This document shows, in pieces, positions 33,029 through 34,465 of a DNA stretch of 64,000 nt. The DNA comes from Escherichia coli (GTDB lineage Bacteria; Pseudomonadota; Gammaproteobacteria; Enterobacterales; Enterobacteriaceae), in NCBI RefSeq assembly GCF_016026235.1, contig NZ_CP065613.1. One strand, written 5' to 3'. How positions within the stretch are numbered: position 1 is the stretch's first letter; each line of letters begins with the position of its first letter. The notes under the pieces were generated by a model, which was not told the DNA's origin, ran no database searches, and saw only the letters and a list, made by a program, of their open reading frames with translations. The translations under genes and the position numbers were made by a program.

Positions 33029-34465
33029 TCAGCGTTTGTAACCCCCGCCCAACGCACCAGTGAGTTGAATGGAGGCATCCAGCCACTGCCCTTGCAATAA
33101 CAGGCCATTGGCCCGCTCACGCAGCGCGGGGATTCTGGCTTCGCTGACGCGGGAACCAGCAATGATGCCCGCGTTAAAGCGCGCCTGCGCAAGACCTACC
33201 ACACGCAAGGCATCGCGCTCAATTTGCGCCTGATGCTGGTTTTTCTCCGCAAGTGTCTGAACGTGACTGGCTGCCCGCGCCACGTCATTCACCGCTTCAA
33301 CCACCGCTTTGTTGTAGCTGGCGATAGACAAGTTGCTTTCGGCTTTTGCGATATCAAGATTGGCGTTAAGACGACCACTATCGAAAATGGGTAGCGTCAG
33401 GCCTGCCGTAACGCCCATTTGCTGCGCGGAATGACGGAACAGATCGCTTAAGTGCAACGCATCCTGTTGCAGGAAGGCCATCAGGTTGATGTCAGGATAA
33501 AATGCCGCTTTTGCCGCATCAATGGTGCTTAGCGATGACTCAACGTACCAGTGCGCCGCCTGCAAATCTGCCCGCCGCGCCAGTAAGGAGTACCCCAGTT
33601 CATCAGGAAGCTGGCTTGCCACTTTCGGCAACGCGACCGGTTTAAGCTTCAATGACTTAGTCTGGTGATTTGTGAGTGCATTTAACCGTGCCTCAATAAT
33701 TTTCATTTTCCCCGCGACATCGTTGAGCTGCTGCCGGGTTTTGCTGGCATTAATATCGGTTTCCACACCTTCAACTGAAGAAGTAATCCCGTTCTGATAT
33801 AGCTGGCGATCGGTCGCGATAATGGTGTTCTGCTCTTTTTCGATTTGCTGCAAGACAGTGTTTAACGCCGCCTGGGTTTGCCACTCCCAGTACAGGCGGG
33901 CTACGCTGCCAGCCAGCAATTGGCGGGTTTGCTCGCGTTCCGCCGCCCGTGCTTTAACCGTACCCTGGCGGGCAGTAACCTCCGCCCGATTCTTTCCCCA
34001 GATATCGAGATGCCAGCCCGCCGTTAAGCCAAAAGTACCGTTGGTGTACCACGGACCGGTCGTACCTGCGGCCGGATCGTTCAGAGCAAACGGCCCCATT
34101 AGCCCTTCTGCCGACATTTTTTGCCGCTCCATATCCGCAGAAAAGTCGATCTGCGGACCATCCTGAGTGGCAACTGCCTTCGCCTGGGCTTCAGCTAGCT
34201 GAATGCGCTGTTCAGCCACCTGCATATCCGGTGCGTTCTGTAGTGCATTGTTAATTAATGAAGTGAGTTGATTATCGTGATACTCCAGCCACCATTGGCT
34301 GTCTGGCCAACCATTTTTCAGCGCCGTGGGTAATGCGGTGTCAACTTGTGCAGCGGGCGTTTGCTGGCTTAACGCCTGGCGGGTTTCATGCATAGGCGCA
34401 CACCCGGTCAGCATCAGTAACAGCGGAAAACAGGCGATGGCTGGATAAAAGGAATCACGATTCAT
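33029..34465 (-). CDS. mdtQ: outer membrane efflux channel (OprM/NodT family), apparently intact
   Basis: 478 aa from MNRDSFYPAIACFPLLLMLTGC (lipobox); uninterrupted frame. Confidence 0.8.
   Translation of the reverse strand: MNRDSFYPAIACFPLLLMLTGCAPMHETRQALSQQTPAAQVDTALPTALKNGWPDSQWWLEYHDNQLTSLINNALQNAPDMQVAEQRIQLAEAQAKAVATQDGPQIDFSADMERQKMSAEGLMGPFALNDPAAGTTGPWYTNGTFGLTAGWHLDIWGKNRAEVTARQGTVKARAAEREQTRQLLAGSVARLYWEWQTQAALNTVLQQIEKEQNTIIATDRQLYQNGITSSVEGVETDINASKTRQQLNDVAGKMKIIEARLNALTNHQTKSLKLKPVALPKVASQLPDELGYSLLARRADLQAAHWYVESSLSTIDAAKAAFYPDINLMAFLQQDALHLSDLFRHSAQQMGVTAGLTLPIFDSGRLNANLDIAKAESNLSIASYNKAVVEAVNDVARAASHVQTLAEKNQHQAQIERDALRVVGLAQARFNAGIIAGSRVSEARIPALRERANGLLLQGQWLDASIQLTGALGGGYKR

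Follow-up and report, generated by a model that had tools for sequence, protein, structure and literature searches.

MdtP (YjcP) of the MdtNOP system is, by NCBIfam, the closest paralogue family to MdtQ (YohG), the predicted outer-membrane-factor (OMF) lipoprotein considered here, whose gene is located on a 64,000-nt stretch of an Escherichia coli genome (NCBI RefSeq assembly GCF_016026235.1, contig NZ_CP065613.1; hereafter the window). Both are NodT-type lipoproteins; the gene for MdtP is accompanied by those for its adaptor, MdtN, and its FUSC-type pump, MdtO, whereas that for MdtQ stands as an orphan. The best relative of solved structure by sequence is VceC of Vibrio cholerae (PDB 1yc9), which aligns with residues 51-477 (E-value 4e-39). 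VceC has an MFS pump (VceB) and an adaptor (VceA) encoded alongside it, unlike MdtQ, which lacks adjacent partner genes. The RND-associated OMF lipoproteins OprM, CusC, CmeC and OprN share the protomer architecture of MdtQ (template modelling (TM) scores of 0.75-0.85 at 18-23% identity), but the relatives nearest to MdtQ do not lie in operons of the RND type. TolC, too, has this architecture of four beta-strands and long coiled helices, but it is not a lipoprotein, whereas MdtQ is of the lipoprotein type.

The mdtQ locus itself is known in two states. MdtQ proteins of O157:H7 (WP_001078131.1), BL21(DE3) (WP_001078139.1) and FDAARGOS_943 (WP_096854100.1) are encoded at the same locus, are 478 amino acids long and are annotated as intact, and non-K-12 mdtQ genes share 97-99.9% DNA identity with that of the window. 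The K-12 orthologue (b2139; NHF38_RS07865 in EMG2) is a pseudogene, and the paper on YohP speaks of the K-12 ‘mdtQ pseudogene’ (PMC12719787). A 2025 review describes mdtQ as conserved in the core genome despite the pseudogene label, encoded independently, with a function not elucidated and a promoter unconfirmed (PMC11762307). The window very probably carries a normal, intact chromosomal E. coli mdtQ of the NodT/OprM type at its conserved locus, having retained the ancestral state from which the K-12 laboratory lineage departed by losing one A. The gene, its intactness outside K-12 and the K-12 frameshift were already known from RefSeq/PGAP annotation and from both papers; for the copy in the window we document what the gene is, that it is intact, its fold and synteny, its frequency in the population and the purifying selection on it.

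A NodT-type lipoprotein gene

The minus strand of the window contains one long open reading frame (ORF) at 33029..34555, from which an upstream TTG start would give 508 amino acids. Initiation at the ATG at 34465 yields 478 codons followed by a TGA stop at 33029-33031, with no internal stop. This ATG is the conserved start, because the NCBIfam MdtQ model aligns over its full length from residue 1 and orthologues share the N-terminus, MNR(D/N)S being found in all of those compared (E. albertii, Salmonella and Citrobacter). Aligned with five intact alleles, each annotated independently (O157:H7, BL21(DE3), 536, FY26 and NMBU-W10C18), the gene shows no insertions or deletions, and intactness across the entire frame is far above chance expectation. 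A preliminary description of this DNA had reported a continuous frame of 478 codons without giving its strand, and the ORF listing and stop-free translation agree with it. It had also named undetected errors in the frame as grounds for rejection. These can be discounted, as the exact protein is already deposited at NCBI as ‘MdtQ [Escherichia coli]’ (e.g., EIT4515678.1) on 23-24 contigs of independent assemblies. At 90% clustering the protein is grouped with others in a set of 11,156 sequences, and it differs from that of FDAARGOS_943 only by a leucine-to-glutamine substitution at residue 167 (L167Q), with T20 (in the lipobox) and H401 common to both.

The MdtQ equivalog model (NCBIfam NF008524) scores 1018.6 bits against a cut-off of 650, aligning residues 1-478 with profile positions 1-478 of 478. 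The second-best NCBIfam match, MdtP, reaches 352.7 bits over residues 17-477, under its cut-off of 597. The NodT subfamily model (TIGR01845) scores 275.4 bits against a cut-off of 210 and is covered from position 4 to 460 of 460, and the Pfam OEP model (PF02321) scores 106.4 bits over two stretches, corresponding to two OEP repeats. The TolC subfamily model (TIGR01844) gives 53.5 bits, well short of its cut-off of 225. Sequence matches in the PDB are led by VceC and include OprM, CusC, SilC and CmeC.

The N-terminus has the features of a lipoprotein signal peptide. The predicted signal ends in LLMLTG directly before Cys22, and its -3, -2 and -1 positions fit the pattern [LVI][ASTG][GAS]. In an alignment of 124 diverse family members, Cys22 is invariant (124/124), position -3 is leucine in 90, position -1 is glycine, alanine or serine in all, and position +2 is alanine in 84. 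Under the established Lol rules, alanine at +2 implies sorting to the outer membrane.

An AlphaFold2 model built from the same 124 diverse sequences has a mean predicted local distance difference test (pLDDT) score of 90.1 and a predicted TM score of 0.86; a shallow alignment of 11 near-identical orthologues gave an unusable pLDDT of 43.2. The model places strands at residues 105-116, 139-153, 325-336 and 348-357, and helices of ~67 residues at 158-224 and 365-431. Foldseek aligns it with CmeC, VceC, CusC, OprN, SilC and OprM at TM scores of 0.75-0.89 (E-values of ~1e-22), including VceC at 0.75/0.86 and 26% identity, and with TolC at ~0.66-0.75 and 12-13% identity. Taken on sequence and predicted structure, the mdtQ product is a bona fide NodT-type OMF lipoprotein, with lipidation inferred. 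NCBIfam, Pfam, PDB sequence matches and the AlphaFold2/Foldseek comparison thus bear out the earlier assignment to NodT/OprM-type lipoprotein channels, while its label ‘TolC-like’ holds for the fold and fails for the TolC subfamily.

By analogy with the family, the MdtQ precursor would, after export, receive its lipid on Cys22 and then reach the outer membrane. Three protomers would assemble there into a beta-barrel pore that extends into the periplasm as a long alpha-helical tunnel. Docked to an adaptor in the periplasm and, with it, to a pump of the inner membrane, this tunnel would serve to expel substrates. We infer lipidation, trimer formation, channel activity, partner type and expression of MdtQ from such relatives.

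The K-12 frameshift and the species norm

In K-12 EMG2, mdtQ is flagged as a ‘frameshifted’ pseudogene of 1436 nt. It is orthologous in location and 98.6% identical to the window gene, and its 250-nt upstream region differs by one base. The alignment shows 19 substitutions, which account for five amino-acid differences, and the loss of one A from a run of five (A5) at gene nucleotides 144-148: the window reads CTGAAAAATGG where K-12, with four (A4), reads CTGAAAATGG. This shift of frame falls just behind the signal peptide; as a result, the reading frame of K-12 closes after 69 codons, and the signal peptide is cut off from the channel. Both the EMG2 annotation and the shortened A-run confirm the statement, in the preliminary description, that K-12 mdtQ is a disrupted pseudogene. 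Programmed frameshifting is an unlikely rescue for the K-12 gene: on inspection, CTG AAA ATG does not form a canonical slippery heptamer, and transcriptional slippage would need a longer run than A4. Null mutants of yohG/mdtQ in K-12 reportedly show increased susceptibility to three compounds, puromycin, acriflavine and tetraphenylarsonium (Sulavik 2001, as cited in PMC11762307). This is a paradox, as K-12 mdtQ is already frameshifted at codons 49-50; a polar effect on the downstream gene yohF is a possible explanation of the reported hypersusceptibility.

The K-12 state is the exception within the species. Among 5,426 complete RefSeq E. coli genomes, a 2.5-kb query matches the locus in 5,425, with mdtQ annotated between yohF and yohP. 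A 61-mer spanning A5 is found exactly in 4,587 of the 5,407 matching complete genomes, and the corresponding K-12 60-mer with A4 exactly in 355. Sixty of these A4 carriers were listed, and all 60 are K-12 laboratory derivatives (MG1655, DH5alpha, DH1, C600, J53, NCM3722, AG100, ER1709 and others). In a spread sample of 60 rows from a query with the gene, the span is 1437 nt in 55 genomes, 1436 nt in four (all K-12-type) and truncated in one, so that ~92% are intact in length. The truncated copy, in STEC379, has a 5' deletion associated with the insertion sequence (IS) IS1, and in OkiPb01676 the stretch that matches the locus bears the annotation of an IS421 transposase. The gene is annotated as intact in O157:H7, BL21(DE3), uropathogenic E. 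coli 536, FY26 and NMBU-W10C18, and it is an intact 1437-nt coding sequence (CDS) in FDAARGOS_943, the nearest relative among complete genomes.

Beyond E. coli, intact orthologues occupy the syntenic locus in E. albertii (94% identity), Salmonella (81%) and Citrobacter (80%). The ratio of nonsynonymous to synonymous substitution rates (dN/dS) between the window gene and each lineage compared is 0.11-0.15, and mdtQ is under strong purifying selection. The preliminary description had implied that an intact mdtQ is an asset distinguishing this strain, one that could contribute an extra channel. That it distinguishes the strain is not supported: the intact gene is the norm of the species, as the A5 and A4 counts show, and is published as such (PMC11762307).

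Expression, residue 167 and pump partners

The observations that weigh against the main reading concern the expression signals of mdtQ, its repeated loss, residue 167 and the evidence on its partners. The control region comprises 223 nt and is bounded by the divergent gene yohP. No genus aligned (Escherichia, Salmonella, Citrobacter) has a Shine-Dalgarno sequence before the mdtQ ATG, and a scan for sigma-70 promoters and intrinsic terminators over 32900-35200 returned counts no higher than those of shuffled controls, with nothing usable upstream of mdtQ. As no promoter was detected above these controls, expression of mdtQ may be low or conditional. Independent inactivations also recur, namely the K-12 frameshift, the IS1-associated deletion in STEC379, the annotated IS421 transposase in OkiPb01676 and sporadic truncation in S. 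Typhi and Paratyphi A (PMC9241588), which suggests that mdtQ is dispensable in some niches.

These points raise the alternative that the frame is intact but the gene cryptic or decaying, barely expressed, contributing no channel and giving no phenotype. The orphan position of mdtQ, with partner genes not nearby, and the review's description of its function and promoter (PMC11762307) are in keeping with it. Against it stand the low dN/dS with respect to every lineage, the fact that four species or genera have kept the gene intact and in place, and the proportion of sampled genomes that are intact in length. A further counterpoint is a 27-nt block 55-82 nt upstream of the ATG, which contains a -35-like TTGCCA and is invariant across genera. 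Its flanks diverge among genera, and in Citrobacter even the upstream gene is a different one. Judged by this conservation, the block is probably a candidate promoter or regulator site, and it was not called in the sigma-70 scan. Finally, MdtQ protein has been detected in the proteome of a porcine, non-K-12 E. coli, where, like MarA and MarR, it was up-regulated (log2 fold change 2.3, q 0.06; PMC12584432). Overall, a cryptic or decaying gene is unlikely. Because MdtQ rose together with MarA in that proteome, the block was also compared with the MarA/SoxS/Rob marbox; this candidate was rejected, with no match at 34521-34547 at up to three mismatches and 129 occurrences of the pattern against 143.5 expected in shuffled sequences.

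A second alternative places the defect in the protein, with L167Q impairing folding or helix packing so that the window carries a missense loss-of-function allele. The single difference within the gene between the window and FDAARGOS_943 is T>A at nucleotide 500 (window 33966), which replaces the leucine found in all compared E. coli. A 61-mer carrying the change has a full-length exact match in none of the 5,426 complete RefSeq E. coli genomes. Residue 167 is leucine in Escherichia and isoleucine in Salmonella and Citrobacter, within the motif GKNRAEVTAR[LI]G, which is near-invariant in orthologues. Across the family alignment, this column is leucine, valine, isoleucine or methionine in 105 of the 123 other members and glutamine in none of them. 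The AlphaFold2 model puts residue 167 ~2.5 turns below the barrel, on the first of the long periplasmic helices (H158-224), where the substitution might weaken helix packing. Arguing for tolerance, polar or small residues do occur in the column (threonine in six family sequences, alanine in seven and arginine in two), and the aligned residue of VceC is itself threonine. The Q167 variant also persists on the 23-24 contigs from several assemblies, and nothing in the background rate of single-nucleotide polymorphisms (SNPs) marks it as selected. The pLDDT around residue 167 is 96-98, a value to be read with the insensitivity of AlphaFold2 to point mutations in mind. A missense null allele is, in sum, distinctly improbable.

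L167Q is a real, lineage-specific and non-conservative polymorphism, and it cautions against taking ‘intact’ to mean ‘functional’. Two other readings of the substitution were rejected. Sequencing error is contradicted by the identical protein in other assemblies, and a selected or de novo change by the divergence from FDAARGOS_943, since one SNP in 1,437 nt equals the background of 29 mismatches in 44,457 nt.

A third alternative concerns the partner. On this account, which the phrase ‘extra TolC-like channel’ in the preliminary description implies, MdtQ would serve AcrAB and other RND pumps as a spare TolC, in line with a fold common to OprM, CusC, CmeC and MtrE, all of which serve RND pumps, and with reviews that count MdtQ among the E. 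coli OMFs. No pump or adaptor gene adjoins mdtQ in E. coli, Salmonella or Citrobacter, and out-groups for the class of partner were taken from the nearest full-length relatives in a search of 1.84 billion representatives. One relative with 41% identity to MdtQ (P0127) is encoded in an operon of YtcA, MFP adaptor, FUSC pump and OMF, which is the MdtNOP layout. Another with 41% identity (P0125) follows a FUSC pump gene (FUSC-OMF), and a third with 39% identity (P0131) lies between an MFS pump and an EmrA-like MFP adaptor. The gene of a relative with 37% identity (P0126) is followed by a TetR regulator gene, and that of the relative with 59% identity (P0121) by an SDR gene, as in E. coli. None of these five inspected relatives has an RND pump beside it.

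As the nearest operon relatives have FUSC or MFS pumps beside them, and MdtP and VceC rank first by sequence, the partners of MdtQ are most likely non-RND, namely FUSC/ArAE or MFS pumps with EmrA/AaeA-like adaptors. This assignment, drawn by analogy, rests on three informative out-group contexts at 39-41% identity, and the function of MdtQ, for this or any intact allele, remains predicted. The same contexts and sequence relatives, together with the low score against the TolC subfamily model, make a spare TolC for RND pumps very improbable. In addition, tolC mutants of non-K-12 E. coli stay hypersusceptible, which argues against MdtQ replacing TolC.

The weakest alternative, a sequencing or assembly error that miscalled A5 and made the gene appear intact, draws on the error-proneness of homopolymers on some platforms and has a negligible chance of being right, given exact A5 matches in 4,587 independent complete genomes, the identical full-length protein in more than 20 other assemblies, and the need for A5 to encode the motif LKNGWPDSQWW, which is invariant in orthologues.

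The mdtQ locus and its place in E. coli efflux

The features of the locus are collected in Table 1. The gene order is dusC-yohP-mdtQ-yohF-yohD-yohC-pbpG-dld, and this block of the window is 99.9% identical to FDAARGOS_943. The order from dusC to dld is the same in K-12 and Salmonella, while Citrobacter keeps dusC...mdtQ-yohD-yohC-pbpG-dld, with no yohF at the locus. The pairing of mdtQ with yohF also occurs in Salmonella and in the 59%-identical relative, and the two genes are possibly co-transcribed. In the 52-nt gap between them, an 11-bp AU-rich hairpin at 32986-33012 (minus strand) abuts the yohF ribosome-binding site (GGAG). As an mdtQ-yohF terminator the hairpin lacks a U-tract, and its fold z-score is only -1.5; an effect on the translation of yohF, or on read-through from mdtQ, is conceivable.

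Table 1. Features of the mdtQ locus, with positions in the 64,000-nt window.
Feature	Position	Strand	Basis
mdtQ (yohG) CDS, intact outer-membrane-factor lipoprotein	33029..34465	minus	ORF, translation, NCBIfam, Pfam, AlphaFold2, Foldseek
Predicted lipoprotein signal peptide, MNRDSFYPAIACFPLLLMLTG followed by C; lipobox L-T-G-C with Cys22	34400..34465	minus	translation
A5 homopolymer, CTGAAAAATGG, codons 49-50; A4 in K-12	34318..34322	minus	pairwise alignment with K-12 EMG2
Codon 167, CAG (Gln); CTG (Leu) in all compared E. coli	33965..33967	minus	comparison of alleles
Invariant 27-nt block, GATGTATTGCCACGCG[A/T]AACTAAAAAA; candidate promoter or regulator site	34521..34547	minus	upstream alignment of window, K-12, 536, Salmonella and Citrobacter
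yohF (SDR oxidoreductase), 52 nt downstream of mdtQ	32215..32976	minus	annotation of 99.9%-identical FDAARGOS_943
yohP, gene for a 27-aa small membrane protein, divergent upstream of mdtQ	34689..34772	plus	sequence, annotation, PMC12719787

On the other side of mdtQ, the gap between yohP and dusC contains a variable, multi-copy stretch at ~34775-35160, and in many strains, K-12 among them, the alignment breaks off at 34774. The 2.5-kb query to the locus matches a median of four places per genome, with a 60-nt match on a plasmid, which bears on the copy number of the stretch. In position it corresponds to the published TRIP1c repeat (PMC10888264), which was described 43 bp downstream of yohI/dusC and 363 bp upstream of yohG and would here fall at roughly 34829-35116. 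The stretch includes, at 35019-35050, a perfect inverted repeat of 12 nt, and a 107-aa ORF at 34809-35132 (minus strand), wholly inside the stretch, is probably spurious.

A scan of 32000-36500 with Rfam places no RNA family within mdtQ or next to it. Its sole match is naRNA4 (RF02564), a nucleoid-associated RNA derived from repetitive extragenic palindromic (REP) elements, at 32094-32171 (plus strand) between yohD and yohF. With 56.5 bits, just below the gathering score of 59.5 (E-value 1.8e-8), this match is most likely an ordinary REP element. At a larger scale, the window departs from colinearity with FDAARGOS_943, to which it is elsewhere ~99.7-99.9% identical, only at 1-8700, 13903-19109 and 63556-64000. 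The counterpart of these parts in FDAARGOS_943 is a prophage remnant dense in IS600, ISSfl3/IS66 and IS5, with pseudogenes including an integrase and psuG, and the IS load of that neighbourhood resembles that of Shigella or enteroinvasive E. coli.

With respect to mdtQ, K-12 is the outlier of the species. Collections of knock-outs in K-12 (Keio and similar) are uninformative on MdtQ because K-12 is already null, and learning the function of MdtQ needs a non-K-12 background or a repaired A-run. For the lineage represented by the window, the Q167 allele should first be compared with L167, the common allele, if it is to serve as ‘wild type’. Purifying selection, the conserved control element, the FUSC and MFS operons of the out-groups and the one proteomic detection lead us to suggest, tentatively and as a less likely reading, that wild E. 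coli, Salmonella and Citrobacter may possess a conditional fourth exit duct for orphan FUSC/ArAE or MFS pumps (AaeAB- or EmrAB-like), controlled via the 27-nt element; such a duct would have been systematically overlooked because almost all efflux genetics has been done in K-12, a natural mdtQ null.

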